Source: a virus (taxonomy: Duplodnaviria; Caudoviricetes). From it: DNA of 64,000 bases. This document shows, piece after piece, positions 4,740 to 63,568 of the stretch. The notes under the pieces were generated by a model. The model saw nothing but the letters and a program-made list of their open reading frames with translations, did not search any database and was not told where the DNA came from. The stretch's first letter is position 1. Each line of letters begins with the position of its first letter. A program made the position numbers and the translations under genes. Where the stretch lies: the IMG/VR virus record IMGVR_UViG_2634166429_000001, positions 29,136 to 93,135 of that record. The stretch is one strand, 5' to 3'.

Positions 4740-5593
4740 ACCAGCCGATACGTCTGGACGTCACGACCGCCCACCAAGCCTTCACCGACCACGCTCACTT
4801 CCGCTACCGCGGCTGCGCCCCCGACCCCGACCAGCCCCACCTTGCCGCAGGCGACCACACGGTTCCCGTCACCTCCTGGGAAGCCCCCGACCTGGACGGC
4901 GGCGAAGCACCTGCGGTCCGTACCGCTCGGGAGCAGGCCGCGGTCGAGGTGTGCGTGGGCTGCCCGGTCATGGTGCAGTGCCTGGCCTATGGTGCCTCCC
5001 TCACCCGCGACGGGAAGCTCGCCGAGCCGTACGCGGTCCTGGGTGGAATGACGCCCATGGAACGCCACCGGGCGTTCGTCGCCTACAAGACGGCGTTGCA
5101 GGAGATGCCGCAGCCTGCCCCGGCCCGGCAGTTGCAGACGGATCAGAAGCTGGTCGTGTTGCGGGCGTTGGCCGTCCACACCAGCCCGCAGGCTGTTGCC
5201 GACGCCGCTGGCACTCCTATGCGGACCGCGAACTGGCAGCGGTCCATCCTCGTCGGCAAACTCGGGCTGGCCCGGCCGGCGACGCGGATGCAGCTCCTCA
5301 CGGCGGCCGCCGAACGCGGCCTCCTCGACGGCGTGCAGGTCGTGCCGGACGACGGGAGCGTGCCCGCCGTGCCCCGCCCCCCGCACCGCCCCCGCAAACC
5401 CCGCCGTCCCGCGGGCCGGCTCACTGTGGTGGCGCTGCCCGAACCCGGACCGTACGAACCGGCCCGCGTCCCCAGCCTGCGCCGCAGTCGCTTCACCGAC
5501 ATCGCCGGCCAGCTCGCCTTCGACGACCTCGCCCCCGACGCCACCATCCGCAACCTTCCCACCCGCGCCCGCGTCCTGGAGGCCGCAGCATGA
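4736..5593 (+). CDS. WhiB-like Fe-S transcription factor with C-terminal HTH
   Basis: RGC...VCVGCPVMVQC...AVLGG, followed by an HTH-like region. Confidence 0.7.
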   Translation: MNQPIRLDVTTAHQAFTDHAHFRYRGCAPDPDQPHLAAGDHTVPVTSWEAPDLDGGEAPAVRTAREQAAVEVCVGCPVMVQCLAYGASLTRDGKLAEPYAVLGGMTPMERHRAFVAYKTALQEMPQPAPARQLQTDQKLVVLRALAVHTSPQAVADAAGTPMRTANWQRSILVGKLGLARPATRMQLLTAAAERGLLDGVQVVPDDGSVPAVPRPPHRPRKPRRPAGRLTVVALPEPGPYEPARVPSLRRSRFTDIAGQLAFDDLAPDATIRNLPTRARVLEAAA

Positions 5594-10823: not shown

Positions 10824-10858
10824 GCAGGGGCAACACGATCCGGAATCTGCGGCACCGT
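10821..10858 (+). promoter_or_regulatory. Class B promoter
   Basis: TGAGCAGGGGCAAC-18-CACCGT. Confidence 0.55.
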
Positions 10859-11138: not shown

Positions 11139-11286
11139 AGGACCGCCATGCCCACCACCCCGTTCATACCGGCCCAACGCACCGTGCCCGTCTGGGAGAG
11201 TCACCAGCTGTTCCGTGAACCGCAGTACGAGAACGGCGTGCCGTGGACGCCCGAGGACGACGACAGTCCCGAGGACGACGGCTGAG

Positions 11287-11308
11287 GAGTTTTACGGCCG
11301 TAAAACTC
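11287..11308. promoter_or_regulatory. Candidate parS site (22-bp perfect palindrome)
   Basis: GAGTTTTACGGCCGTAAAACTC upstream of parA; core repeated inside parB. Confidence 0.65.
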
Positions 11309-11404
11309 TCGACCCCGCACGTCTCTCCGAGCCCGATCTCCCCGTCTGGCAGGATGCTCCCCGTCCGAAGTACCGGATCCTCGGGAAGTAGTCGGAGAAC
11401 GAAC

Positions 11405-12145
11405 ATGCCTTACATCACCGTGCTCCTGAACAGAAAAGGCGGGGTCGGGAAGTCCCTGATCTCCGTCAACCTGGCCGCGGTCTATGCCGAGATCCTCGGC
11501 TGCGGCGAAGACGACCCCACCGTGGCTGTCGTCTCGATAGACCCCCAGGCCACCAGCGTCGAACACGCCGACGCGGTACGCAAAGCAGGCCGGCCCGTCC
11601 CCTTCCGCGTCGTCAACGCCAAGAACAACGTCGATCAGTTGCGCAAGCTGCGCCGCGCCAAGGCCGACATCATCATCGTCGACACCCCAGGCTTCATGCC
11701 CCTGGAAGAAGGCGAGGAAGACGCAGGACCGTCCATCGACCCGCTTGGCGACGGAACTGTAGGCGACTCACTGCGGGCCGTCTTGGATGCAGCCGACGAC
11801 GTCATCGTCCCCCTCCCCGCCGCAGGAGCAGCGTTCCGTTCCACCAAGACCACCATCGAACGTGTCCTCATTCCCCGGCAGATCCCCTACGGCGTCGTCG
11901 TGTACTGGGATCCGCGCGACAGCGAGGCGGACCGGGACCGCACCCAGAGCCTGGTGCGCCGCCAGGGCTGGGACATGTACAACACCACGATCCGCCACTA
12001 CAAGCCGCACACCCGCGGCATTACCACAGGACGGCTCTGCACCCAGTACGAGCCCAACCCCATCGCACTCAAAGCCAAGGCTGACTTCCAGTCCCTGGCC
12101 CTCGAGCACCAGATGCGGCGCCAGAAGCGTGCGGGAGGTCAGTGA
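11405..12145 (+). CDS. parA: ParA partition ATPase
   Basis: Deviant Walker A KGGVGKS, IDPQA, IIVDTPG. Confidence 0.92.
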   Translation: MPYITVLLNRKGGVGKSLISVNLAAVYAEILGCGEDDPTVAVVSIDPQATSVEHADAVRKAGRPVPFRVVNAKNNVDQLRKLRRAKADIIIVDTPGFMPLEEGEEDAGPSIDPLGDGTVGDSLRAVLDAADDVIVPLPAAGAAFRSTKTTIERVLIPRQIPYGVVVYWDPRDSEADRDRTQSLVRRQGWDMYNTTIRHYKPHTRGITTGRLCTQYEPNPIALKAKADFQSLALEHQMRRQKRAGGQ

Positions 12146-13302
12146 TGGCCAGCCGTAACGACTTCGACGACTTCTTCGGCGACGACGAGGAGACCGCAGT
12201 CGCCGACACCCGGGCGGACGGACGCCTCTACCGGGTGCCTATCTCTCGCATTGCGCCGAACCTGGTCAACCCGCGGAAGGACTTCGGGACCGCGGACCAG
12301 CTCATTGATCTCGGCAAGAGCCTGGCCCGCCGTCAGAACCAGCCCTGCCCCGTCGTCAGCCGCAACGCCTACCTGAAGCTGTGGCCCGAGCCTGAGGACC
12401 GCCTTAAGGACGTCGACTACGTCCTCGTGTCCGGCGAGCGCCGGTACCGGGCGGCCACCGCTGTCGGCCTGGCCACACTGGATTGCGTCGCCAACGACGA
12501 CTTCGCCAGCGACCGGCGCACGTTCATGGAGGCCGTGGTCTCCGAGAACGTCGACCGGCAGAACTTCGACCCCGTCGAAGAAGCCTACGCCGTCCAGGCC
12601 CTGGTGGCGGAGTTCGGCACCAACCGGGCCGTCGCCCAGCACTTCGAGCGCGCCGACGGATGGGTCACCCAACGCATCCTCCTCACCAACCTGGCCCCTG
12701 AAGTACAGGACCTGGTGCGGAAGAAGACTCTCCCGCTCGAGGCGGCTCGAACCTTGGGCAAGCTGGCCCGGGATAAAGACTGGGCTGCCCGCGACCAGCT
12801 GGAGTGGTGGGAGGGCGAGCAGGAACGGCGTGCGGCCGCGTCTGCGGCCCGCTCGGCTGCACGCCGCGCCGGCAGCCAGGAGCCGGTGCCGATGCGCCAG
12901 CCAGCTCCGGAACCTCTTCCAGCGGTGCCGGGGGCCACCGGTCCGGGGACGCCGAGTTTTACGGCCGTAAAACCGTCGGTGCCCTCCAGCAACGAAACGG
13001 CCCCCGCCCTCGAGAACGATGCGCCCGGGCCCGCCGCGGTTCACGCTCCGCGGGAACCCGCCCTCGCACCGGTCCCGGCGGCAGTGGCTGAAGCAGAGAG
13101 GGTGGTGCCGGAGCAGCCCGGCCCAGTGACCCCGGAACAGACGGCGGCTGACGACCGGAAGCCGGCGAAGCCCTTCCCATACGACGACGGCCTGTTCGCG
13201 GGACAGCTGGTCGTGCACAAGATGGATCTGGCTGAGGTCGCCAAGATGTACGAGGTTCTCGGCCTGCATCTGAAGAAACACGAAGCTTCCTCTTCCGTGT
13301 GA
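12142..13302 (+). CDS. parB: ParB partition protein
   Basis: NPRKDF, QPCPVV, SGERRYRA, SENVDRQNFDPVEEA, HTH. Confidence 0.92.
   Translation: MMASRNDFDDFFGDDEETAVADTRADGRLYRVPISRIAPNLVNPRKDFGTADQLIDLGKSLARRQNQPCPVVSRNAYLKLWPEPEDRLKDVDYVLVSGERRYRAATAVGLATLDCVANDDFASDRRTFMEAVVSENVDRQNFDPVEEAYAVQALVAEFGTNRAVAQHFERADGWVTQRILLTNLAPEVQDLVRKKTLPLEAARTLGKLARDKDWAARDQLEWWEGEQERRAAASAARSAARRAGSQEPVPMRQPAPEPLPAVPGATGPGTPSFTAVKPSVPSSNETAPALENDAPGPAAVHAPREPALAPVPAAVAEAERVVPEQPGPVTPEQTAADDRKPAKPFPYDDGLFAGQLVVHKMDLAEVAKMYEVLGLHLKKHEASSSV
12956..12973. promoter_or_regulatory. Candidate parS site inside parB
   Basis: GTTTTACGGCCGTAAAAC, identical to the core at 11289-11306. Confidence 0.6.
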
Positions 13303-28947: not shown

Positions 28948-28985
28948 AGTCTGGGCACGAAACCGGGACGTGTTGCCCCTGCTCA
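28948..28985 (-). promoter_or_regulatory. Class B promoter, probably giving a leaderless mRNA
   Basis: TGAGCAGGGGCAAC-18-CAGACT-7-ATG. Confidence 0.65.
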
Positions 28986-29623: not shown

Positions 29624-30003
29624 CACATCACCTGGGCTAGGTCGAGCAGGGCCTGGTCCCAGGTGGTGAAGCGGATGCCGCGGTCGTCGATGTAGGCGAT
29701 GGCGGGCAGCTTCCGGTCGGTGACGAGGAGGACGCCGGTTTCGTTCCAGAACTCGCGCTTCGGGTGGTCGGGCCCGGGAACGTCGACCATGGTGTCGAAT
29801 CCGTGGTCGGCGAGCCAACAGGCGACGGTGGTGGCGTCGCGGGTGGTGTGGATGAAGACGGCGTACGTCTTGGTCAGATGCTCGAGGGCTTCAAGGGTGC
29901 CGGGGAGGGGCGGGTCGTAGATGGTGCCGTCTTGCCAGCCGCGGCTGTAGGCGTGGATGACGCCGTCGAAGTCGATGGCGAGGGTTTGGGGGTGGGAGCT
30001 CAT
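29623..30003 (-). CDS. HAD-superfamily phosphatase
   Basis: IDFDGVIH, HTTR, K, YIDDRG. Confidence 0.85.
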   Translation of the reverse strand: MSSHPQTLAIDFDGVIHAYSRGWQDGTIYDPPLPGTLEALEHLTKTYAVFIHTTRDATTVACWLADHGFDTMVDVPGPDHPKREFWNETGVLLVTDRKLPAIAYIDDRGIRFTTWDQALLDLAQVM

Positions 30004-30010
30004 GGGCTCT

Positions 30011-30045
30011 ACCGTCCCGCTGATCCGCCGTCGTGTTGCCCCTGC
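30011..30045 (-). promoter_or_regulatory. Class B promoter, probably giving a leaderless mRNA
   Basis: GCAGGGGCAAC-18-GACGGT-7-ATG. Confidence 0.6.
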
Positions 30046-37272: not shown

Positions 37273-37674
37273 TCAGGCGTCGTAGTACGTGGCCGGGTCG
37301 TCCGCGAGCACCGCCACGCCGTCCTTCAACAGCCGGATCGGGCCGGTCTGCGAAGCGCGCTCGCTGGACACGGCGAAGTAGGCGTTGCCCTCGCCGCGAG
37401 CATCGGGCCCGTAGGTGCCGTGCTCCTCCCACGCGTTGGTCGGCCAGTTCCAGCGCTGAAGGATGAACGTCGGCCAGCTGGCCGTGCGCTGCTCCTCGAC
37501 GGCCGACTGCTCCGCGGTACCGGGCCAGGCGATTCCGAGCCTGGCCAGGACGGCGTGGAGGATCGTCCCGGGGTCGGCGCCTTCCTCGCCGGCCGCGCCT
37601 TCGACGGCGTGCCAGGCGGCGTTGTACTCGCCCTCGGTGAGGGGGCGGGTGGTAAGTGGGGTGGTGTCCGGCAT
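37273..37674 (-). CDS. Hypothetical protein
   Basis: RBS GGAGG. Confidence 0.65.
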   Translation of the reverse strand: MPDTTPLTTRPLTEGEYNAAWHAVEGAAGEEGADPGTILHAVLARLGIAWPGTAEQSAVEEQRTASWPTFILQRWNWPTNAWEEHGTYGPDARGEGNAYFAVSSERASQTGPIRLLKDGVAVLADDPATYYDA

Positions 37675-37703
37675 GGGTGGCCTCCGGTGGCAGGGGTGGG
37701 GTC

Positions 37704-37739
37704 AGGTTCTCGCGGTTGGGGGTGGGGGATTGCCCCTGC
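37704..37739 (-). promoter_or_regulatory. Class B promoter
   Basis: GCAGGGGCAAT-19-GAACCT. Confidence 0.55.
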
Positions 37740-37809
37740 GCGGGTCAGGCGGGAGGGGTTTGAGTGTGTGGGGGTCTTGCCTGGCGTGTGCGGGGCGACC
37801 ACCTGACCC

Positions 37810-37841
37810 ACTCTAACGCATATCCCATTGCACTGCCATGG
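37810..37841 (-). promoter_or_regulatory. Class A promoter/operator copy 4
   Basis: CCATGGC-AGT-GCAATGG-GATATGCGT-TAGAGT. Confidence 0.8.
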
Positions 37842-37863
37842 GTTCGACGGACCCCGGGCACAC

Positions 37864-37893
37864 AAAAGGGCGGGCACCCGCAGGCACCCGCCC
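37864..37893 (-). terminator. Intrinsic terminator
   Basis: GGGCGGG...CCCGCCC-TTTT on minus. Confidence 0.65.
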
Positions 37894-37916
37894 CTGAACG
37901 AACCGTCAAGCCCACC

Positions 37917-38321
37917 TCACACGCCCGACTCCTCCTCCTCGTCCTCCCACGGCGCACCCATGTGCGACAACGGGCCCTTCACCTCACGCATCCGGTCATC
38001 CAGCCGGGACAGATCCACCCGCGCCTCCCGCAACGCCAACACCACCGTCGTCACACGGTCGAAGATGTCCTGCTGCGACGTCTCCGCGGGCGGCTTGTCG
38101 TCCAGTCGGATCCGCTGCTCCTCGTGAAGCCGTTCCAGGCCGGTCTCGAGCTGGCGGAGGGCCCGCGGAAGGTACTGCACGACCCGGGCCAAGGCATCGG
38201 CGGCCTCGGACACGTCACCAGGCTGCGCGAAGGCTTTCGCGTCCAGCGTGCGGTGGTTGAACGCCCGAAGTTCCTCTGCTGCGGCGGTGGCAATCTGCGC
38301 GGGTGTACGGCTCAAATCCAC
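37917..38321 (-). CDS. Hypothetical helical protein
   Basis: RBS GGAGG before GTG. Confidence 0.65.
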   Translation of the reverse strand: MDLSRTPAQIATAAAEELRAFNHRTLDAKAFAQPGDVSEAADALARVVQYLPRALRQLETGLERLHEEQRIRLDDKPPAETSQQDIFDRVTTVVLALREARVDLSRLDDRMREVKGPLSHMGAPWEDEEEESGV

Positions 38322-38451
38322 GAGGGTCCTCCAGGCTGGTTGTCGGCGCCGTCCAGCATGCCAGCGGCCACCGGCAGGCCGCGGGGGTTCCGTCCAGCCC
38401 GGCCCGGCAGCATCCTGGACCCTGCCGACACCAGCACCCGGGAGGCCCCAC

Positions 38452-38571
38452 GTGAACTGCAACAAATGCGGCGGCACGGCACAGCAAGGCCCAGACGGCT
38501 CCTGGCTCTGCCCCCTATGCGGCCCCATCTCCAAGACCGTGCCCGAGCCGCAGGTAGGGTCGGCTGAGTGA
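38452..38571 (+). CDS. Tiny Zn-ribbon protein
   Basis: CNKC...CPLC; RBS GGAGG. Confidence 0.55.
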   Translation: MNCNKCGGTAQQGPDGSWLCPLCGPISKTVPEPQVGSAE

Positions 38572-38798
38572 ACCAGCACCAAAAGCGCCCCGCTACCCCG
38601 CCCGGGACTACACCCGCAGAGGCGGCGGCGTTCCTGGAGGCTCAGGAGATCACGACGACGGGATGCCGGCGTTGCGGGACGGAGATCTCCGGGGTGAACG
38701 GCAGGTATGCCTGCGGGAACTGCGGGTGGGTGTCGCACTGGTCGGATTCCCACACCGAGCTGCCGACCGCGCCGCGGCAAGACACCACCCAGGCGTGA
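38568..38798 (+). CDS. Small Zn-ribbon protein
   Basis: CRRC...CGNC. Confidence 0.65.
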   Translation: MNQHQKRPATPPGTTPAEAAAFLEAQEITTTGCRRCGTEISGVNGRYACGNCGWVSHWSDSHTELPTAPRQDTTQA

Positions 38799-38943
38799 AG
38801 CGGCCCCCGGACATGGCTGCCGGGGGCCGAACCAGCTCTTCCCCTACCGTCGAGCACGGATCATGGGGGCGCTTCCGGAAGTGGCCCGCATCCACGGGCA
38901 CACACCGGAGCATGACACCCGGCACCGACAGACGTTGCCCCTG
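38795..38943 (-). repeat. Duplicated promoter plus structured RNA element, copy 1
   Basis: About 148-bp imperfect direct repeat of 40296-40442. Confidence 0.85.
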
Positions 38944-38950
38944 GTCCGTT

Positions 38951-40216
38951 TCAGCCGGCGCTGCCTTCGTGTATCCGCGCCGTCATCTCCCGTAGCCGTT
39001 CAACGACCGCCCGGCAGTCCCCCAGCGCCCGATGGTCCCCGCCATATAGCGGCTGCCAGGCGTAGTTCCCCCAGTAGTCAGACCAGTCCCCGACCCAGTC
39101 CGAGTACGGAATCATCGCGTCCTCGAACCGCATGCCCGACATCCAGGCCGCGGCAGCCGCTTCCGGCTCGGCGTGGCCCGTCTGCCGGTAGTGAAGGGTC
39201 AGTTCGTGGTGCAGCCGTGCCACGTCGTACGGCTTGTTGTAGATCAGGCATCGCCGCCCCTCCAGCACGCCGGCCAACTGGACGAGGATGTCTGCGAACC
39301 GGGGCGCTGCAGCCACCTGGGCGTCGGTGATGCCGTGAAGGCCGGTCGCCTCGTTGGGGATGGGCTCTCCCGGGTTGACGAGCGTGTCCATGAGGATGTC
39401 GCCGGCCACAGTCTGAACAGCGATGTCGACGATGCGCGCATCGTCCTCGAGGCCCGTGGTCTCGGTATCCAGGATGACCGTGCCCGGGTCGGCGAGGACT
39501 TCGCGTGCCCACGCCTCCAGGGCGGCAACCTGCTGGCGCCGTGCTTCAACGGCAGCGCGGGCGTTCTCCTCTGCCTGCCGCTGGCGCTCTACCCGCTCGA
39601 GCGTGTCCCGTTCAGCGCAGGGCGGGCACCAGCGCGGCGACAGCCACGTCTTCGCGGCCCGTTCAGCGGCGATCTCCTCATCGGTGGCCGTGACCACCGC
39701 GCAGCCCTGCCCAGGGCATGTACGGCGCCACACGGCCAACCGCTCGGCCTCGAACTGCTGCTGGAGACGCCACAGCACCCAGCACGGCACACACCGGTCC
39801 CGCTCGCCCGGGCCTGCGGCAACGCGCAACGCGGCAACCGAGACCCTGCGGCACTTCCAACAGGTCCGGGCCTGCAACGCCAGCCGATCCTCACGGTCCT
39901 TCGCATCGCATGCCGAGCACTGCCGGTACACGGGCTGCTGGCGGACCTGATGGCAGCGTGGGCAGGTGCGCCGTTCCGTCATCGCCTGCTGCTGCCTCGC
40001 GGACAAGGGCCGCATCTTCGCCGCGCCGGCCGGATCATAGAGAGGGAACTTTCCCCATCCGTGCCCACGCCGGTACATGCTCAAGAACCCGACCGGCTCC
40101 TGCCCCTCCGCAGGCTTCAGCCGATCAGCCTTCAGCTGCGTCATCGTCCGCAGATGCTCGGGGACCTCCCCGGCCTTGTACACGGGAAGGCTGTCTGTGG
40201 TGGTGGCATCGGGCAT
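38951..40216 (-). CDS. DEDDh 3'-5' exonuclease (DnaQ-like) with N-terminal Zn fingers
   Basis: ILDTETTGL, YNKPYD, HRALGDC. Confidence 0.9.
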   Translation of the reverse strand: MPDATTTDSLPVYKAGEVPEHLRTMTQLKADRLKPAEGQEPVGFLSMYRRGHGWGKFPLYDPAGAAKMRPLSARQQQAMTERRTCPRCHQVRQQPVYRQCSACDAKDREDRLALQARTCWKCRRVSVAALRVAAGPGERDRCVPCWVLWRLQQQFEAERLAVWRRTCPGQGCAVVTATDEEIAAERAAKTWLSPRWCPPCAERDTLERVERQRQAEENARAAVEARRQQVAALEAWAREVLADPGTVILDTETTGLEDDARIVDIAVQTVAGDILMDTLVNPGEPIPNEATGLHGITDAQVAAAPRFADILVQLAGVLEGRRCLIYNKPYDVARLHHELTLHYRQTGHAEPEAAAAAWMSGMRFEDAMIPYSDWVGDWSDYWGNYAWQPLYGGDHRALGDCRAVVERLREMTARIHEGSAG

Positions 40217-40295
40217 GGGGGCCTCCGAGGTGAACGTCCTGGGGGTATGAAAGCGCACAGGTCTGACATCCCGCGGGGCTTCGGCCGGGCCCAGA

Positions 40296-40442
40296 TGTGA
40301 AGCGGCCCCCGGGTGGACGTCCGGGGGCCCTCCAGCACTTCCCCTACCGCGGAGCACGGATCGTGGGGGCGCTTCCCGGAGTCGCCCCCGCGAACGGGGA
40401 CCACCCCAGCATCCCAGCCCCCACCGACAGACGTTGCCCCGC
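40296..40442 (-). repeat. Duplicated promoter plus structured RNA element, copy 2
   Basis: Shares TGAAGCGGCCCCCGG, CTTCCCCTACCG, GAGCACGGATC, TGGGGGCGCTTCC, CACCGACAGACGTTGCCCC with copy 1. Confidence 0.85.
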
Positions 40443-40468
40443 TTCTTCGGCTGTGCCGAGAACAGCGG

Positions 40469-40756
40469 CTACTGAGTCCGCTCAAGGGGCTTCGGGTACA
40501 TCCGCCGCAGCTCGTCCATCGTCAGGCTCCGGATCAGCGGGTCGGGCTTCCCGGTCTCGGGTGTGCCGAGCACCCTCTCCTGGATGGTTCGCAGCTCCAC
40601 CTGCATGACCTGAGCCAGCAGCTTTGCGGCGTCGCCGGTGATGCAGCGGTTTCTGACGGCGTCCTCAACCCACTGGGCGAGTCCGACGATGGCGCGGCGT
40701 ACGAGTTCGTCTGCCTCGGCGTCGTCGTTGGCGGGCGGAGTGTTGTCGGTCGTCAC
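40469..40756 (-). CDS. Hypothetical protein
   Basis: RBS GAAGGGA. Confidence 0.6.
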   Translation of the reverse strand: MTTDNTPPANDDAEADELVRRAIVGLAQWVEDAVRNRCITGDAAKLLAQVMQVELRTIQERVLGTPETGKPDPLIRSLTMDELRRMYPKPLERTQ

Positions 40757-40885
40757 GCGGTAGGTCCCTTCGGTGGACGGGTGGGTGGGCTTCTTGCGGC
40801 AGTGTGGCAGTGGTGGCCGGTCGCGTGGGGGGAAACGTTCGGGCCCCGCCGTCGAGGGGGTTCGGTGGCGGGGCCCAGGGGTGCG

Positions 40886-42286
40886 TCAGGCGATGTCGCT
40901 GAACAGAGCAACGCTGTACGGCTCAGACAGGCGCTGCACGCACAGCTGGGCGTACGGCTCCTCCTTCTCGACGCCGACCGCGGTCATGCCTTCACGAAGG
41001 GCTGCGGCGAGGGTCGTACCGGACCCGGCGAACGGGTCCAGGACGGTCCCGCCGGGCGGGGTGACGAGCCGGACCAGCCACTGCATCAACGCGAGCGGCT
41101 TGACCGTGGTGTGGGCGGTGCCGTCGGCGAGACGGGGCCGCTCGGACGCTGGCGCCTTCGCCTCGTACCGGAACACGGGGAAGAACCTGGCCTCCGCCCC
41201 GAAGTCCGGCACGGGGCAGCCGGGGCTGCAGGCGTCATCGCAGTCCGGGCCGTGGCCGAGGAGGACGTTCGTGGGCCAACGGCCGGCCGGATGCGCGAAG
41301 TCCTCGCACACACCGGTCCACTCACCGTAGGCGTCCCCGTTGCGGTCCGAAGCGAGGCCGACGACGGAGGCGCATTTGTCGCGGTAGTCCTGCCCGGCTT
41401 GCGTCCGGCACCCGTCGATGTTCAGGGCGCCCGTGCCGTGCTCCAGCACGTTGGCGACGGTCGTGTTGAAGCCGGTCGACTTCCGGGCCAACACGATCGG
41501 CTCGTGCGCCGGCTTCAACGCCGTGTTCCAGCCCTGCCACTGTCGGGCAGGGGCAGAGGCAGGAGCGGTGAGGTCGTAGGCGCCGTCGCTGAGGGCGGCT
41601 ATCTGAACATCGGACTCACGGCGCACCCGGTGGGCTTGGCCGATCACCTCTCGTTGCAACCAGGCTTCGCCCAGGGTGCCCCGGCGGGCGTTCAGCTCGG
41701 CGACGAGCGGGCGGATCTCCGTATCGTCGAAGCCGAGTTCCTCACGAAGCCGGTCCCACTGCTCCGGGGTGGGTACGGTGGCTGCGACTCCCTGAGTTGT
41801 CCAGTGCCCAGCCATGCCGTTGAAGCCCCACAGGGCATCGATCCGCTGATTCGTCCAGGCCGCTGCGTCGCGGGCTACTGCCAGCCATGCCGTTACCTGT
41901 AGAACCTTGGCACGGTCATCGCGGCGACGGTCGATGGACTTGGCGATGTCCTGGCCTTTGGGGAATCCGCTGCCGTAGATCCAGTGCAGGCTGTCGCGGA
42001 TCTCGAAGCCGGCGTCTTCGATAGCAACGGTCATGCGGTGGTAAGTGCGAGTCCCGCCGAAGGCGAGGAGGTGCCCGCCGGGCTTGAGGACCCGCCAGCA
42101 GTGCCGCCACAGATCGACGTTGTAGGCGATACCGGACGAATCCCACGCCTTGCCCATGAAGCCGAGCTCGTAGGGCGGGTCGCAGACGATCGCGTCGACG
42201 GAGGCGTCGGCCAGGGCGGGCAGGATGTCGAGGCTGTTGCCGAGGTGGAGGGTGACGCCGTCGGATTCGTAGTAGGGGGCGGTCAT
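40886..42286 (-). CDS. Beta-class N6-adenine/N4-cytosine DNA methyltransferase
   Basis: CDPPY, HTTVKP, VLDPFAGSGTT. Confidence 0.92.
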   Translation of the reverse strand: MTAPYYESDGVTLHLGNSLDILPALADASVDAIVCDPPYELGFMGKAWDSSGIAYNVDLWRHCWRVLKPGGHLLAFGGTRTYHRMTVAIEDAGFEIRDSLHWIYGSGFPKGQDIAKSIDRRRDDRAKVLQVTAWLAVARDAAAWTNQRIDALWGFNGMAGHWTTQGVAATVPTPEQWDRLREELGFDDTEIRPLVAELNARRGTLGEAWLQREVIGQAHRVRRESDVQIAALSDGAYDLTAPASAPARQWQGWNTALKPAHEPIVLARKSTGFNTTVANVLEHGTGALNIDGCRTQAGQDYRDKCASVVGLASDRNGDAYGEWTGVCEDFAHPAGRWPTNVLLGHGPDCDDACSPGCPVPDFGAEARFFPVFRYEAKAPASERPRLADGTAHTTVKPLALMQWLVRLVTPPGGTVLDPFAGSGTTLAAALREGMTAVGVEKEEPYAQLCVQRLSEPYSVALFSDIA

Positions 42287-43031: not shown

Positions 43032-44228
43032 TCACTTGGGAACGCGTCTCCTGTTCAGCAGCGCCTCCCGAGCGGACACCCTCTGATGCACCGACACCTC
43101 CGTCATGGCCGCCTCGCGCGGCGGCGGCACAGGCCCAGGAAGCTTCCACGCCGGCGCCCTGGGCGCAGGAGCAGCAGCGGGCCGTGGAACCTCCTCCACG
43201 CCCCCCTCGGCAGCCCGTCCGGCCCGCTTGTCCTGCTTCCGAACGTCGCAGGCCCGGCAGTCCTGCCCGGTGTCGACGTTCGTCCGCTCGTCACACCGCG
43301 GGTCCCCGCACTCCGCGTCCCGGCGCAGCATCGCCACCAACGCGCCCACCGGCTTCTTGAGCGGCCCGGCCTGGTCCCGGCGCGAGTAGTGCTTGTCCCA
43401 CTTCGGCAGCAGCCGGTACTCGATCAGCTGCTCCACAGTCCGGCCCACTGGGTTGGAACCGTCTGTGGCAGCCAGGACGGCGCGCACCAGAGGCTCCGGG
43501 AGCCCGTTCGGCACCAGAGCCTTCAGCGGAGCGGGCAGGGCCTGCACGAAGGCGTCGTACTGGCGCCGTTCCTCTCGTGAGAAACCGGGCTGCTTGATCT
43601 TGCCGGACGCGGCGGAGCCGCCAGCACGCGAACCCCTACTACCTGTAGAGGCCTGACGGCCGTCACCACCCCTTTCTCCCCCCTTCTCTTCTTTTACTTC
43701 TCTCTGGTCTTTTACCGCCGCACCCATGCGGCCAGGGGTAGCCGCACTGGCGCGGCCAGGGGTAGCCGCATCCATGCGGCCACCCCCCTGATCAGGGCGA
43801 TCCGCCTGGACCCCCTTACGGGCAGCTCGCGCAGCTGCCCGATCGGCGGCCCGCTGGTCCCAGATCTCGTGGTCCAGCAGCTCGTATTCGCTGGGCAGGT
43901 TCAGCTTCGGGTTATCCGGATCCTGCTGCCGATGCACCCTCAGCAGGCCTCGGGCCTCGAGGCGGGCTGTGGCCCGGTCCACGGTGTCCACGGACCGGCC
44001 GATGCACGCCGCCAGGCGCTTACGGGTCGGAACGTCCAGTGGGATCACGTTGCAGTCCGTGTCGGTGGTCTCCGGAGACTCCCGGGTTTCCACGTCCACG
44101 AACGATGCCAGGGCCGCATACAGGGCCTTGTCGGTCGGGTCCACGCTGCCATCTCGGGCCAGCTCAAAGTCGAACTTCACCCAGTCCAGACGACTGGCCC
44201 GGCGCGTGGCACGGGGAAGAATCGTCAC
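43032..44228 (-). CDS. Second replication initiator-like wHTH protein (Rep2)
   Basis: TDKALYAALAS...PTRKRLAACIGRSVDTVDRATARLEARGLL; internal iterons. Confidence 0.7.
   Translation of the reverse strand: MTILPRATRRASRLDWVKFDFELARDGSVDPTDKALYAALASFVDVETRESPETTDTDCNVIPLDVPTRKRLAACIGRSVDTVDRATARLEARGLLRVHRQQDPDNPKLNLPSEYELLDHEIWDQRAADRAAARAARKGVQADRPDQGGGRMDAATPGRASAATPGRMGAAVKDQREVKEEKGGERGGDGRQASTGSRGSRAGGSAASGKIKQPGFSREERRQYDAFVQALPAPLKALVPNGLPEPLVRAVLAATDGSNPVGRTVEQLIEYRLLPKWDKHYSRRDQAGPLKKPVGALVAMLRRDAECGDPRCDERTNVDTGQDCRACDVRKQDKRAGRAAEGGVEEVPRPAAAPAPRAPAWKLPGPVPPPREAAMTEVSVHQRVSAREALLNRRRVPK
43670..43786. repeat. Intragenic iterons plus purine/A-rich tract (candidate ori)
   Basis: Three GCCGCA-N4-YGCGGC units at 43717, 43741, 43765 (24-bp period) next to a strand-biased tract. 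Confidence 0.7.
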
Positions 44229-44453
44229 CGTTGCGCCCCCAGCATGTGAGTGATTTCGCTGGGGGCCCCACTTGGCAGACGACGAACAGGCTCTACGATG
44301 GCCATGAAGCCTCGCCTTACTTCTCTTGGGCGCTTCGAGTGCCAGCGGACTGCAATCCACTGGTTGTGCTTGACGGCCGGTGGGCGCTGCGACCCGCCGG
44401 CCGTTCTGCGTCGCCAGGCGCTGAGGGCTGCGATCCCCAGGCTTGCAACGCGA

Positions 44454-44915: not shown

Positions 44916-45647
44916 CTACTCCTGAGGGCGCAGCGAGGTGGTCCAACGAAGGATCGTCGATCCCTCTGCGACCTTCACCGCAACCTCAACGACCCGGCCG
45001 TCTTCCAGAGTCACGGTGCGCACCACCTGGGTCACCACGACCTGGCTGGCAGTCAGGCCCAGTACCTCCTTCTCCGCGGCCGTGGCATGCCGGCTCGTCA
45101 CCTCCTCCAACACTTGATCCTGGGCGAGCCCCAACCGTGACGCCGCGAGCTCCCGCGATGCGCCGGTAGAGACCGGCTCCATCAGCTCAGGAGTCACCGC
45201 AACCACGTAGGCCGGGTAGTAGCTGCTGCTCAGGTGGATGGGGAGGCCGTTCCGGCTGACCACCCGCCGGCGCACCTGCACAGGCGTTCCGGGGGCTACG
45301 TCAAGCCGCGATGCCACCAGCTCGTCGGCACCGGTTGTCCCGACCTCCAGGATGCGCGAGACCTCGCCGCCATCAAGAGCGCTACCGGTAGCCGCGTGCA
45401 AGGCCACGCGAGTGCCGATGTTGTTGCTGACGGGACTGGATACGACTGTCCCCACGCCAGTCTTGGCGTGCGTTAGCCCCTCCATCTTGAGGACCCGGTA
45501 GGCGCGGTTGATGGTCGTATGCGCCACGCCGAACTGCTCGCTGGCTGCCTTGAAGCTCGGCAGAGTATCGCCGGGCCTCAACGTCCCGTCGCGGATCTGC
45601 CGACGAAAGTGCTCAGCGATCTCCGCGTATCCGGGGGTGTCGCGCAT
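44916..45647 (-). CDS. GntR/UTRA (KorA/TraR-like) transfer repressor
   Basis: YAEIAEHFRRQI...GDTLPS...FGVAHTTINRAY plus UTRA domain; divergent from the tra operon. Confidence 0.9.
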   Translation of the reverse strand: MRDTPGYAEIAEHFRRQIRDGTLRPGDTLPSFKAASEQFGVAHTTINRAYRVLKMEGLTHAKTGVGTVVSSPVSNNIGTRVALHAATGSALDGGEVSRILEVGTTGADELVASRLDVAPGTPVQVRRRVVSRNGLPIHLSSSYYPAYVVAVTPELMEPVSTGASRELAASRLGLAQDQVLEEVTSRHATAAEKEVLGLTASQVVVTQVVRTVTLEDGRVVEVAVKVAEGSTILRWTTSLRPQE

Positions 45648-56644: not shown

Positions 56645-57160
56645 ATGAGCGCTTCAACGGATCAGCAAGCCGAGACCTTGGCCCGACGCACCGCACTGAT
56701 CGCACTGCGGCGCCAACGGCCCAAAATTTCCTTCAGCTCCGACGAGGTCCTGGCCCTCGGCTACTCCTCCGACAGTGCAGCCCGAAAGGACTTCTACCGC
56801 GCCCTGGAGCAGCGTCGGAAAGACCTGAAGATCGAGGTCACCGCCTTCCGGGAAGAGCAGAACGAGATCATCGACCAACTCCTGGAAACGCACCTCCCAC
56901 CGGCAGTCGACGGTGACATCAAGGCCAGCGAACTCGTCCTCAAGCTCCTCGAGCGGCAGGCCAAGCTCAACGGCTGGGAAGAAGCCCTGAAGGCGGAGCT
57001 GTCCGGGCCGAACGGCGGCCCCGTCCCCATCCGCGGCGCCTCCCTTGCCCAGCTCCGCGAACTGATCCGTACAGCAGGCGACCCCGACGAGGACGACGAG
57101 GAAGAGGACCTGGGCGACGACACCGACGGTGACGCGGATGACGACAGCGACGACGCCTGA
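56645..57160 (+). CDS. Terminase small subunit
   Basis: Position; LKLLERQAKLNG, ELSGPNGGPV. Confidence 0.7.
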   Translation: MSASTDQQAETLARRTALIALRRQRPKISFSSDEVLALGYSSDSAARKDFYRALEQRRKDLKIEVTAFREEQNEIIDQLLETHLPPAVDGDIKASELVLKLLERQAKLNGWEEALKAELSGPNGGPVPIRGASLAQLRELIRTAGDPDEDDEEEDLGDDTDGDADDDSDDA

Positions 57161-58781
57161 CCCCGCCCTCGAAGACGACGTCGCCCAGGAAGCCGCAGCC
57201 TACCTCCAACTCCGCGACGAATACCGGCGCCTGAACCGCGCCCAACGCCGCCGCATCGCCGCCCACGCCACCAGCGAAGTCCGCGCCGTCATCGCCCACA
57301 TCGAACGGGAGATGGCCCTCGAGCGGTCCCCAGGATCGATGTCGGCGATACTCACCGACGGCCGGGAGAAGCAGGCCGCCCACCTGGACCTCATCGACCG
57401 GGTGTTCCGCGACATCGCCCGCGGCCGCCCGCGCAAGGTCCTCATCACCATGCCTCCGAGGCACGGGAAGAGCCGGCGTGCCGCACGCTGGGCGCCGCTC
57501 TGGTACCTGTCCCGGCACCCGGACCACCGGGTGATGATCGCCTCCTACTCGGCCGACCTCGCTGACGACCACGGCCGGTGGATCCGCGACGCCATCAACG
57601 CTTACGGCCCCCAGATCGGCCTCAGCCTGCACGCCGGATCGAAGGCCGCCAACCGCTTCGACCTCGCCGACCCCCAGACCGGAGAGCGCCTCGAAGGGGG
57701 CCTCGTCACCGCTGGTGTCGGTGGCGGACTTACGGGCAAGGGCGCTCACCTCGCCATAGTCGACGACCCGATCAAGGACGATGCCGAAGCGCAGTCGCCC
57801 ACCATGCGGAAGCGGCTGTGGGAGTGGTGGACGTCCGTCCTCAACACGCGCATCGAGCCCGGCGGCTCCATCATCGTCATCCAGACCAGATGGCACGAAG
57901 ACGACCTCGCTGGCCGCATCCTTGCAGGTGAGGACGCCGAAGACTGGACCATCCTCGACCTACCCGCCATCTGCGACAGCGCCGACGACCCCCTCGGGCG
58001 GGAGATCGGGCGCCCCTTGTGGCCGCTTCGGTACGGCCTGAAAGCCCTTGCGAAGATCCGGCGCGCGGTTGGCGAGCGCGTCTGGGGATCCCTCTACCAG
58101 CAAAAGCCCCGCCCGGTCGCCGGCGGTGTCTGGCAGGAAGAGTGGATCGAACGCAACCGCATGTCGACCGCCACCCTGCGCGGCATCGACCTGGACCGCA
58201 TCGTCATCGCCGTCGACCCCGCCGGCGGAGAATCTGCCGTCAATGACGAGGTCGGCATCATCGCCGCAGGCTGCGCCGAAGTCGAATCCGTCTCCGACCG
58301 CCACGACCATCCCGAGCACCGCGACGAGTACTACCTCCTGGACGACAAGTCAGCCTCCCTCGGAGCCGACGAATGGGGCACCACCGCCTGCCTCCTCGCC
58401 GTCGAATGGCAGGCCGACGCCATCGTCGTGGAAGCGAACTTCGGCGGCGACATGACCAAGCAGGTCATCACCCAGGCATGGCAGGAACTGGCCCGCCGCA
58501 GGCTGACCAAGGGCCAGCTCATGCCGCGGATCATCCCCGTCACCGCGAAGCAGGGCAAACGACTGCGCGCCGAACCGATCGCCCAGCTGTACCAGCAGGA
58601 CCGCGTCCACCACGTCGGGAAGTTCCCGAAGCTGGAATCACAGATGGTGTCGTGGATGGTCGGCATGGACTCACCCGACCGCATGGACGCAGCCGTCCAC
58701 GGCATCACCGAACTCGCCGAGCTCGACGGCGGTGAAACCGTCTACGGCGACTACGACCGAGACGACCCCCGCGGCCGCTGA
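57138..58781 (+). CDS. terL: Terminase large subunit
   Basis: MPPRHGKS, IVDDPIKD, QTRWH, LYQQ, AVDPA, DRMDA. Confidence 0.95.
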   Translation: MTTATTPDPALEDDVAQEAAAYLQLRDEYRRLNRAQRRRIAAHATSEVRAVIAHIEREMALERSPGSMSAILTDGREKQAAHLDLIDRVFRDIARGRPRKVLITMPPRHGKSRRAARWAPLWYLSRHPDHRVMIASYSADLADDHGRWIRDAINAYGPQIGLSLHAGSKAANRFDLADPQTGERLEGGLVTAGVGGGLTGKGAHLAIVDDPIKDDAEAQSPTMRKRLWEWWTSVLNTRIEPGGSIIVIQTRWHEDDLAGRILAGEDAEDWTILDLPAICDSADDPLGREIGRPLWPLRYGLKALAKIRRAVGERVWGSLYQQKPRPVAGGVWQEEWIERNRMSTATLRGIDLDRIVIAVDPAGGESAVNDEVGIIAAGCAEVESVSDRHDHPEHRDEYYLLDDKSASLGADEWGTTACLLAVEWQADAIVVEANFGGDMTKQVITQAWQELARRRLTKGQLMPRIIPVTAKQGKRLRAEPIAQLYQQDRVHHVGKFPKLESQMVSWMVGMDSPDRMDAAVHGITELAELDGGETVYGDYDRDDPRGR

Positions 58782-62497: not shown

Positions 62498-63568
62498 ATG
62501 AGCACAACCCTGGACCGGCTCCTCCAGAACGTGACGCCGGAAGACATCAACGCCTACATCAACGGGCTGCCCACCCCGAACAACTACGCCCTCACCCAGA
62601 GCGTGATCCCCGAGCGGAAGATCTTCGGCCCGAAGTTCCGCATCGAGTCGAACAAGCGGCGCGTCAACGCCGCCAAGTTCCGCGCCTTCGACACCCCGCA
62701 CGCACTGGCCAAGCGGCAGGCGGAGCGGGTCGTCAACGAGGGCATGTTGCCCCCGGTCGGCCAGACCCTCGAGATGGGCGAACTCTCCCTCATCCTGTTC
62801 AACGCCCGCCGCGGCGCGGACGACCAGGAGTTCATCGACCAGCTCTACGACGACCTCGAGCGACACTTCACCTCCATCAAGATCGCCATGGAGATCGCGG
62901 CCGGAGAACTCCTGTCCACCGGCGTCGTCAACCTCCCCGGCATCGGAGACAGCGGCGACTACCTCGAGGTCGACTGGCAGGTCCCCACCGAGAACCGTCC
63001 CGTCGCCTCCGTGAAGTGGGACCAGGAAGGCGCCACCCCGCTCACCGACGAGATGGCGTGGCTGCGCTACCTCAAGAGCGTCGGCGCACCCAAGCCGGCC
63101 CGCGTCATCACCTCCGAGCGCGCCGCCTCCGTCCTGGCCTCCAACCAGGAGTACCGCACCGCGTTCTGGAACTCCTCCAGCCCGGAGACCACCCCCTCCA
63201 CCACCCTCAGCCCGCCGGACGTCAACTCCGTCCGCGCCCGCTGGAACCTGCCGCCCATCGAGATCTACGACGAGCAGGTGTGGAGCGACGACGTCTACCG
63301 GCGCGTCACCCCCGAGGGCCTGTGGGCCATGGTCCCGCCCAACCCGGAGCAGTGGGCCCAGACCCAGTACGGCGTCACCGCCGAACAGGACAACCTGGAC
63401 TCCTCCAGCAACCCGGGCCTCGAGGCCGCACGGGAGCCGGGCATCTACGTCTCCTACGACAAGAAGTCCAACCCCGTCCAGTTCTCCACCACGGCCAACG
63501 CCATCGCGATGCCGGTGCTGTACGTGCCGAACTTCCACATCGCGGCCACCGTGCTGGACGAGGACTGA
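62498..63568 (+). CDS. Major capsid protein (lambda gpE-like)
   Basis: Size and position; AKFRAFD, LPPVGQ, C-terminal AMPVL. Confidence 0.85.
   Translation: MSTTLDRLLQNVTPEDINAYINGLPTPNNYALTQSVIPERKIFGPKFRIESNKRRVNAAKFRAFDTPHALAKRQAERVVNEGMLPPVGQTLEMGELSLILFNARRGADDQEFIDQLYDDLERHFTSIKIAMEIAAGELLSTGVVNLPGIGDSGDYLEVDWQVPTENRPVASVKWDQEGATPLTDEMAWLRYLKSVGAPKPARVITSERAASVLASNQEYRTAFWNSSSPETTPSTTLSPPDVNSVRARWNLPPIEIYDEQVWSDDVYRRVTPEGLWAMVPPNPEQWAQTQYGVTAEQDNLDSSSNPGLEAAREPGIYVSYDKKSNPVQFSTTANAIAMPVLYVPNFHIAATVLDED

Follow-up and report, generated by a model that had tools for sequence, protein, structure and literature searches.

A duplicated RNA element around an exonuclease gene belongs to a previously uncatalogued structured RNA family of Streptomyces phage-plasmids

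Temperate phages maintained as plasmids encode short, structured and stable RNAs in their early or regulatory region. The c4 RNA of P1/P7, the CI RNA of P4 and the CB RNA of N15 are processed from leader transcripts and act via defined complementary sites in the same operon. In phage lambda, OOP and the 6S RNA of pR′-tR′ are short constitutive promoter-to-terminator transcripts inside the gene array. A small regulatory gene runs towards OOP, which overlaps the 3′ end of this gene and acts by long antisense pairing; independently of the gene, the OOP sequence shows no conservation. The put RNAs of HK022 occur twice per genome, each just past a promoter, as two stem-loops whose stems vary while loop and bulge nucleotides are kept; they let RNA polymerase ignore terminators in cis. 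Finally, 6C RNA is a small actinobacterial RNA with C-runs (CUCC, CCCCC) able to pair with G-rich ribosome-binding sites. We know of no RNA regulator of Streptomyces phage-plasmids, and our literature search found neither such a regulator nor anything relevant on the core motifs described below. Here we analyzed a 64,000-nt stretch (hereafter the window; bases 29136–93135 of the 93,135-bp viral record IMGVR_UViG_2634166429_000001, our G000), in which two direct repeats flank a 3′-5′ exonuclease gene. Both repeats belong to a conserved family of structured RNAs, not catalogued before, that is carried by Streptomyces phage-plasmids.

Each repeat comprises a promoter-like motif, a 5′ hairpin (P1), an invariant core and a terminal GC hairpin (P3). 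The element shares with c4, CI and CB that it is a short structured phage-plasmid RNA placed beside regulated promoters. However, it is predicted to have a promoter and a terminator of its own, the window yielded no complementary target, and neither its sequence nor the Rfam search links it to those RNAs, the C4 family of Rfam being unmatched. As in lambda OOP, copy 1 is convergent with a small gene, here the Zn-ribbon open reading frame (ORF) ZnR2, and the 3′ ends overlap, but most loci of the family have no convergent gene and the conserved core lies outside the overlap. It differs from pR′-tR′ in that no Q-type antitermination factor is in evidence. With put it has in common the presence of two copies whose stems differ in sequence and whose key loop nucleotides are kept. 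Unlike put, with which it has no sequence similarity, it is directly followed by a dominant terminator in every member, so that a constitutive anti-terminator role makes little sense. Compared with 6C RNA, the element is also small, actinobacterial and C-rich, but it has no match to Rfam 6C and its C-run is predicted in a helix, not in hairpin loops.

A repeat search of the window identified the repeats, each of ~150 bp, at 38788–38941 (copy 1) and 40290–40440 (copy 2), with the minus strand as RNA sense. They consist of three collinear blocks offset by 1499–1502 bp: 38788–38810/40290–40312 (91% identity), 38814–38901/40314–40401 (76%) and 38903–38941/40402–40440 (82%). Pairwise alignment of the two copies gave a mean column identity of 85% with a longest identical run of 19 nt, and a 24-nt core occurs exactly twice in the window compared with 0.00 expected from 100 shuffles. 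In a BLAST search across the entire record, copy 2 was the sole other match (79% identity, E 1.4e-30), which leaves no third copy. The family covariance model R2 (see below) gave two strong matches in the record, 114.7 bits for copy 1 (38786–38903) and 88.6 bits for copy 2 (40288–40404), and three more at E 0.04–0.14 that are GC hairpins or noise only. Repeat search, alignment, core count and whole-record BLAST thus confirm the two copies proposed in a preliminary description of this sequence, and the 5′ hairpins, cores and GGCCCCCGG/CCGGGGGCC hairpins with differing loops that it quoted are all present.

In copy 1, with a predicted RNA from ~38902 to 38794, the promoter-like motif GGCAAC-N19-CATGCT (38909–38939, minus strand, with TGT immediately 5′ of the −10) is followed by P1 (GCCCGU-GGAU-GCGGGC, 38884–38899), the invariant core with its kink-turn-like internal loop (38832–38875) and P3 (38794–38829), which consists of a GC hairpin at 38801–38829 and the tail CGCUUCAC. 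The core is made up of block 1 (GAAGCGCCCCCAUGAUCCG, 38857–38875), the small hairpin P2b (38847–38859) and block 2 (GGUAGGGGAAGAGCUGG, 38832–38848). Copy 2 has the same layout on the same strand: the motif GGCAAC-N19-GATGCT (40408–40438), P1 (GUCCCCG-UUCG-CGGGGGC, 40384–40401), the core (40332–40375, with block 1 at 40357–40375, P2b at 40347–40359 and block 2 at 40332–40348) and P3 (40297–40329; hairpin 40304–40329 and again the tail CGCUUCAC). Its RNA is predicted to run from ~40401 to 40297 and would end ~80 nt before the exonuclease ATG. We also considered a coding reading of the repeat, as a GTG in the core opens ORFs in both copies (38642–38857 and 38951–40357). This was rejected because the loops carry indels between the copies and the peptides are unrelated beyond them.

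To collect the family, we combined BLAST, sequence patterns and covariance models. A BLAST search with copy 1 hit an S. janthinus plasmid (75.5% match) in a gap without annotation, and that copy led to two further plasmids. A degenerate core pattern added six loci in viral contigs and nine in Streptomyces genomes, two of the latter being duplicates of viral ones. A covariance model built from copy 1 alone (R1) recovered 19 elements at E ≤ 1e-4, which were used for the second model, R2. A looser pattern yielded four new viral and 58 metagenome loci, of which 31 passed R2 at E ≤ 0.001 with 54–91 bits; the other 31 of the 62 are chance pattern matches. Among 151 sampled Streptomyces genomes, four had a match at E ≤ 0.001, two of them already known. 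The new ones were G070, with three element copies within 45 kb, and G089, with a partial match that lacks the core. Other searches were negative: blastn of the region found no phage match and only plasmid matches limited to the exonuclease, BLAST with copy 2 alone found nothing among plasmids, and exact patterns from both copies found nothing in viral contigs until degeneracy was introduced.

The final alignment (A12) contains 48 distinct members scoring 53–115 bits with the covariance model, drawn from plasmids and genome contigs of Streptomyces, from viral contigs and from soil metagenomes. It omits exact duplicates (L021, L024), loci found again (L057, L059, L060, L062, L063 and L065, corresponding to L010–L015), loci presumed to be duplicates because their score was identical to that of another locus (L086, L089, L098, L107, L116), and partial matches without the core (L005/W02, pZL12, G089). 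A search of the whole window against Rfam 15 at gathering thresholds gave no match. At E ≤ 10, positions 38700–40500 gave seven chance-level matches, the best with E 0.55 and all at or below 17 bits compared with cut-offs of 35–70. The suggestion that the repeats represent an undescribed structured-RNA family is therefore borne out by the absence of a meaningful Rfam match and by the 48 members found with the covariance model.

Covariation in this wider alignment is clear for the 5′ hairpin and the terminal hairpin. P1 is an optional hairpin of 5–7 bp that starts 6–9 nt past the −10, and all six of its modelled pairs show changes on both sides; in the few members without it, the core lies 18–20 nt past the −10. 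The linker between P1 and the core contains CUCC or CCUC in 33 of the 48 members. P3 is a hairpin of 10–14 bp, in which nine of ten modelled pairs changed on both sides and 97.3% of cells are paired, and it is part of the minimum-energy fold of 42 members. For the whole structure, pairing holds in 95.2% of 1119 cells, and double changes occur in 17 of 24 pairs; none of 500 shuffles reached the observed values, and slid controls reached at most 62.6% paired. In a mutual-information scan the top seven column pairs all fall within P1 or P3. Pairs of the G·U type outnumber A·C pairs (67 vs 26), which favors the minus strand as the RNA strand. As a G+C-rich hairpin P3 resembles an intrinsic terminator, and its tails (CUUCUUCAC, CGCUUCAC or UUUCUCGC) are pyrimidine-rich but form no U-run. 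U-poor terminators are common in actinobacteria. A classical intrinsic terminator is found on the minus strand at 37864–37894 (GGGGCGGGUGCC..GGUGCCCGCCC followed by UUUU), 3′ of the gene for DLx, a small protein described below; proper U-run terminators thus do exist in this replicon, unlike P3.

The core, about 33 nt of which are frozen, has the short form AGCGCCCCCAYGAYCCG - small hairpin - CGG(N)(G/U)AGGGGAAGAGCUGG and the full form AGCGCCCCCA(Y/G)GAYCCG - variable small hairpin - CGG(N)(G/U)AGGGG-A(A)(R)(N)-GCUGG. In 32 of the 48 minimum-energy folds, counting any register, the C-run is base-paired to the G-run of block 2. Between this CCCC:GGGG helix and the small hairpin lies an asymmetric internal loop, CCCC|CAY|GA|YCCG // CGG(N)|(G/U)A|GGGG. 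The GA of the bulged strand and the A before GGGG (A1n) are present in all 48 members. Of the 47 members parsed by regular expression, 33 have G at position 2n, 13 have U and one has C; in L006 this base is G, read by eye. PMC2790904 describes G and U as the two bases that support folding at kink-turn position 2n, with A·U as the sole known natural exception that still folds. The strand layout of the loop likewise fits the kink-turn consensus as given in PMC2790904 and PMC5061560. A three-nucleotide bulge (C-A-Y) after the G-C stem is followed by G·A and A·G (or A·U) pairs and a second stem. The fit is one of sequence pattern, in a register that requires four of five Cs to be paired, and eight members have no nucleotide opposite position 3b. 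We therefore regard the invariant internal loop as a candidate kink-turn.

Reverse complements of blocks 1 and 2, searched with up to three mismatches in the window, matched only the elements themselves or were at chance level. The TraB/clt 8-mer, which we take to be GACCCGGA, was considered and rejected, as the base after GACCCG is variable and there is no array.

The claim that each copy has its own promoter is backed by a bipartite motif at fixed spacing. The family-wide form of this promoter-like motif is GG(G/C)AAC-N18-NANNNT. Its relaxed form G[GC]AA[CG]-N16-20-NANNNT stands at the right distance in 33 of the 48 members, compared with 57 of 1415 control windows from the same loci (4%), and the spacer is exactly 18 nt in 29 members. 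The −10 hexamers of the 33 members have A at position 2 and T at position 6, as in sigma-70-type promoters, about 7 nt before the predicted start (CACACT in ten, CAGACT in six, CAGGAT and GATGCT in four each, CATGCT in three, and others), and are often preceded by TGT or GGT. There is no TTGACA-like −35; this position is taken by GG(G/C)AAC. No sigma factor (Sigma70_r2) was found encoded in the record. The motif matches the window 10 times vs 3.9 times in shuffles, and it also occurs 5′ of protein genes in several other loci. Motifs of the type GGCAACACG-N15-NANNNT are found on the minus strand at 30011–30040 and 28948–28977, and their 3′ ends lie 7 nt before the ATGs of two minus-strand ORFs (at 30003 and 28940). 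This suggests that these ORFs may be expressed as leaderless mRNAs from the same non-canonical promoter class as the RNA. A third such motif, on the plus strand at 10829–10858, immediately precedes the ORF at 10857.

The explanation that we favor, with moderate confidence, is that the element is a stand-alone RNA of ~105–110 nt with a kink-turn-like invariant core as a binding platform, and that its terminator also punctuates the operon. Each repeat would be a small self-contained transcription unit for a structured non-coding RNA, starting ~7 nt past the phage-plasmid-specific promoter GG(G/C)AAC-N18-NANNNT. P1 would form a protective hairpin at the 5′ end, the two invariant blocks would fold into an irregular CCCC:GGGG helix carrying the kink-turn-like loop and the small variable hairpin, and the RNA would end with the strong GC hairpin P3 and a weak U-rich tail. 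As the helices vary while ~33 core nucleotides are frozen, the RNA probably works as a folded particle, possibly in trans. Its core would be the platform for a specific binding partner, most likely a conserved protein or another conserved host or phage factor. Long antisense pairing or self-refolding is less likely. In cis, P3 would terminate transcripts coming from upstream genes; read-through would then be the sole route to expression of the exonuclease that follows copy 2, and copy 1 would shield the convergent Zn-ribbon genes. Of the 45 loci with sufficient flank, 10 have an operator palindrome plus near-consensus −10, by a strict pattern, in the interval from P3 to the next gene, compared with 3 of 1021 control windows, and start codons with a ribosome-binding site (RBS) are mostly found 85–210 nt past P3. 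Together with the convergent Zn-ribbon genes, these separate operator-promoters and start-codon distances argue for the element as an independent unit.

Several observations weigh against this explanation. Part of the family was gathered by patterns that force parts of the core, and because these search patterns forced core letters its invariance is partly by construction; the members found by BLAST or model only (L003, L006, L008, L009, L045, L047, L048) keep the core with single-base differences only. The alignment behind the covariation counts was itself fitted to the model structure, which biases the counts towards it; the unbiased mutual-information scan likewise ranks P1 and P3 pairs highest. 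The CCCC:GGGG helix appears in the exact register of the model in only 20 of the 48 minimum-energy folds, and since it is invariant it has no covariation support. No kink-turn-binding L7Ae protein was found among the proteins encoded in the record. A simple sigma-70 consensus scan of 37600–40900 returned no promoter, so the promoter-like motif is not of the E. coli type, and a terminator consensus scan of the same region (at least five T in eight) found none, in line with the missing U-run. Finally, the exonuclease has no evident promoter of its own, which implies that the cis role is real at least at copy 2.

In a first alternative, the element is a cis leader with a conditional terminator, in which a ligand of the core (a protein, a small molecule or an RNA) decides between stop and read-through at P3. 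Read-through would lead into the exonuclease at copy 2 or antisense into the Zn-ribbon genes at copy 1, and the short RNA would be the default product. The layout is indeed riboswitch-like, with covarying helices and invariant internal-loop nucleotides followed by a terminator, and the element is found within co-directional gene arrays, often ~40–50 nt past the upstream stop codon; no evident promoter for the exonuclease was seen in the 80 nt past copy 2. In addition, 40–47 of the 48 members keep C in the 5′ strand of the lower P3 stem and G in its 3′ strand, so that the GGGG of block 2 could in principle pair with the 5′ half of P3. However, when the 3′ half was blocked in folding, the 5′ half paired with block 2 in only 14 of the 48 members, no consistent antiterminator emerged, and blocking P3 cost 17.6 kcal/mol on average (range 6.0–26.2). 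Pairing between the core and the 3′ half of P3 does not covary either. This bears on the alternative pairing proposed in the preliminary description: GAAGCGCCCCC is complementary to GGGGGC-CGCUUC in both copies, but family-wide the pairing shrinks to C-run:G-run and AAG:CUU, and no covariation is seen, these bases being invariant or compositionally forced. We thus found neither two comparable, mutually exclusive folds nor an alternative helix with covariation. Furthermore, genes downstream of the 48 elements on the same strand form no conserved class but several unrelated clusters of small ORFs, and in many loci a separate operator-promoter follows P3. Of the sRNA-or-attenuator alternative raised there, the undescribed RNA family holds, and the attenuator switch is not supported: the dominance of P3 and the lack of a consistent alternative fold make an RNA-only switch unlikely. 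A conditional terminator governed by a ligand is possible, though we consider it unlikely.

The overlap of copy 1 with ZnR2 raises the further option of an antisense regulator, in which the RNA and the convergent Zn-ribbon genes share a bidirectional terminator and a duplex of their overlapping 3′ ends sets the stability of the Zn-ribbon (ZnR) mRNA. The ZnR2 stop codon (38796–38798) does lie within the RNA tail, convergent ZnR2 homologues lie within 60 nt of P3 in 7 of the 48 loci and three partial matches, and the same gene order recurs in G157, G158, L008 and L009. In contrast, ZnR2 was not seen in the available flanks of 34 of the 48 loci, so overlap with a convergent gene is not a feature of most members, and W01, W03 and G155 have the RNA while ZnR2 is absent from their entire records. 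Such a role would not explain why the core, lying outside the overlap, is conserved. ZnR2 is moreover a hydrophilic protein of 76 amino acids (aa), unlike the usual type I toxins. We consider regulation of this kind very unlikely. Less probable still is that the element acts as DNA, be it as a protein-binding site (origin, partition or regulator) or as a recombination hot spot for module shuffling, with hairpins that are ordinary adjoining terminators. The element does stand at the borders of gene modules that differ between genomes, and the two copies, which resemble each other more than any other member, enclose a gene that in relatives is found elsewhere or is missing. Against this, compensatory changes affect P1, which is not a terminator, the excess of G·U over A·C is seen on one strand, the promoter motif keeps one orientation and one spacing relative to P1, and each replicon has one to three copies with no iterons or arrays.

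A bolder reading assigns the RNA a biological role, as a kink-turn riboregulator of the decision between plasmid and lytic life or of the maintenance of pZL12-like phage-plasmids. It would be an actinobacterial counterpart of the immunity RNAs c4, CI and CB that is built differently. One mode of action would be titration of a conserved factor by an RNA-protein particle. In the other, the element would be a terminator that depends on a factor and sits directly upstream of the early promoter under operator control, and read-through would also silence the convergent Zn-ribbon genes. We regard this role as rather improbable. The findings matter because Streptomyces phage-plasmids have barely been studied, and a conserved, covarying RNA with a frozen 33-nt core is described beside what is probably a regulated early promoter, together with the recurrent non-canonical promoter class GG(G/C)AAC-N18-NANNNT. 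The candidate kink-turn is found in a phylum for which we know of no kink-turn-binding protein. The family would extend Rfam, and its annotation would prevent a false 468-aa exonuclease call that starts at the GTG of the core.

Looking for relatives with a single copy, we found seven complete related records with one full copy each, in other contexts (W01, W03, W04, W05, G155, G157, G158), and two with none (W02, pZL12). W01 has its only copy 1.1 kb downstream of the exonuclease. The two copies around the exonuclease are peculiar to the present record. The link between the exonuclease and the RNA is incidental, and relatives carry one copy in other contexts. The window copies are mutually closest, with 73% identity, whereas none of the other 46 members exceeds 67% to them, and they are 85% identical in the small hairpin; their P1 hairpins are not mutually closest. 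Such a pattern is consistent with the element having been duplicated locally long ago, or with two phage-plasmids having recombined there. As to the proposal that the repeats mediate gain or loss of the gene cassette, we consider it plausible, and deletion of the exonuclease by recombination between the copies would be possible.

A second multi-copy case is G070, where the copies at C1 198–315, 35521–35638 and 44926–45043 lie inside repeats of 180–320 bp that are 87–96% identical; they have CAGAAT as the −10 and no 5′ hairpin. Decayed elements that keep both the 5′ and the terminal hairpin and have lost the entire core were observed at homologous positions, after the exonuclease in W02 (NZ_CP109440.1, 1525–1607), where the order is exonuclease, remnant, ZnR2 and ZnR1, and after DLx (gp093) in pZL12 (NC_013420.1, 75723–75809).

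The exonuclease gene (38951–40216, minus strand) encodes a 421-aa protein of the RNase_T/DnaQ type (Pfam E 2e-15; PHROG 'DNA polymerase exonuclease subunit'). Its start is likely the ATG at 40216 behind GGAGG, in agreement with plasmid homologues of 426–428 aa; the GTG of the copy 2 core is in frame and produces the false 468-aa ORF (38951–40357). No −10-like hexamer that would leave the RBS on the transcript was found, by eye or by consensus scan, in the 80 nt between copy 2 and this ATG, and the gene probably depends on read-through past copy 2. Upstream of copy 2, a 95-aa ORF (40469–40756, minus strand) has its stop 65 nt before the RNA start.

On the other side of copy 1, ZnR2 (38568–38798, plus strand, CxxC..CxxC) ends with a TGA (38796–38798) that is overlapped by the P3 and tail of the RNA, and it is preceded by a second Zn-ribbon ORF, ZnR1 (~38386–38571, plus strand), with a GTGA overlap. 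When the search for a convergent Zn-ribbon gene as the next gene is widened from 60 to 520 nt, the number of loci rises from 7, with the three partial matches, to 14 of the 48. Further along lies DLx (37917–38321, minus strand), a three-helix protein of 134 aa and the commonest upstream neighbor of the RNA in other loci. In 12 loci this neighbor was found, with a length of 117–134 aa, and DLx has 14 homologues. DLx has no Pfam or PHROG family, and its Atlas matches are hypothetical proteins only. Its AlphaFold model (pLDDT 88) shows three helices and an acidic tail, and Foldseek against the PDB returned generic helical bundles and nothing at E ≤ 0.001, which gives no hint of RNA binding.

The order in the window is thus methylase, 95-aa ORF, copy 2, exonuclease, copy 1, ZnR2 and ZnR1 on the opposite strand, DLx, terminator and operator-promoter. 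In G158 and L009 it is the usual one of DLx, RNA and the opposite-strand ZnR2 and ZnR1, followed in G158 by the operon that in the window opens with the gene at 37276–37674; in G157 and L008 the RNA is followed by both opposite-strand Zn-ribbon ORFs. The three-gene module of DLx, ZnR2 and ZnR1 (37917–38321 minus, 38386–38798 plus) recurs beside the RNA in many phage-plasmids. Co-occurrence is not strict, as W01, W03 and G155 have the RNA and neither ZnR2 nor DLx.

The matches of the capsid protein and the exonuclease identify the record as a pZL12-like phage-plasmid. The best phage match of the E-type major capsid protein (62498–63565) is Streptomyces phage/plasmid ZL12, with 55.8% identity over 99%, and the exonuclease matches plasmids only, mostly from Streptomyces and many of ~90 kb. 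In PMC7157519, pZL12 appears as a singleton among extrachromosomal actinophages. The window also encodes a large terminase (57129–58778), ParA/ParB (11243–13299), a GntR regulator (44919–45647, minus strand) and, by Pfam/PHROG matches, DciA and two DNA methylases. A 442-aa protein at 43035–44360 (minus strand), upstream in the same leftward array as the RNA copies, has faint DnaD-like and O-like matches (E ~0.004) and may be the plasmid replication initiator.

An operator-like double palindrome, CATTGC..GCAATG (CCATGGCAGTGCAATGG in the window), lies on the minus strand within 37810–37842, directly 5′ of the −10 TAGAGT (37810–37815). Across loci the palindrome is followed by the near-consensus −10s TAGAGT, TACTGT or TAGACT, and the combination is probably the regulated early promoter of these phage-plasmids. 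The palindrome was also seen in L006 (~5125–5160) and downstream of the RNA in L003, L010, L014, L019, L023, L058, L077, L087, L106 and L117. It stands behind the DLx gene and its terminator in the window and directly behind the RNA in many relatives.

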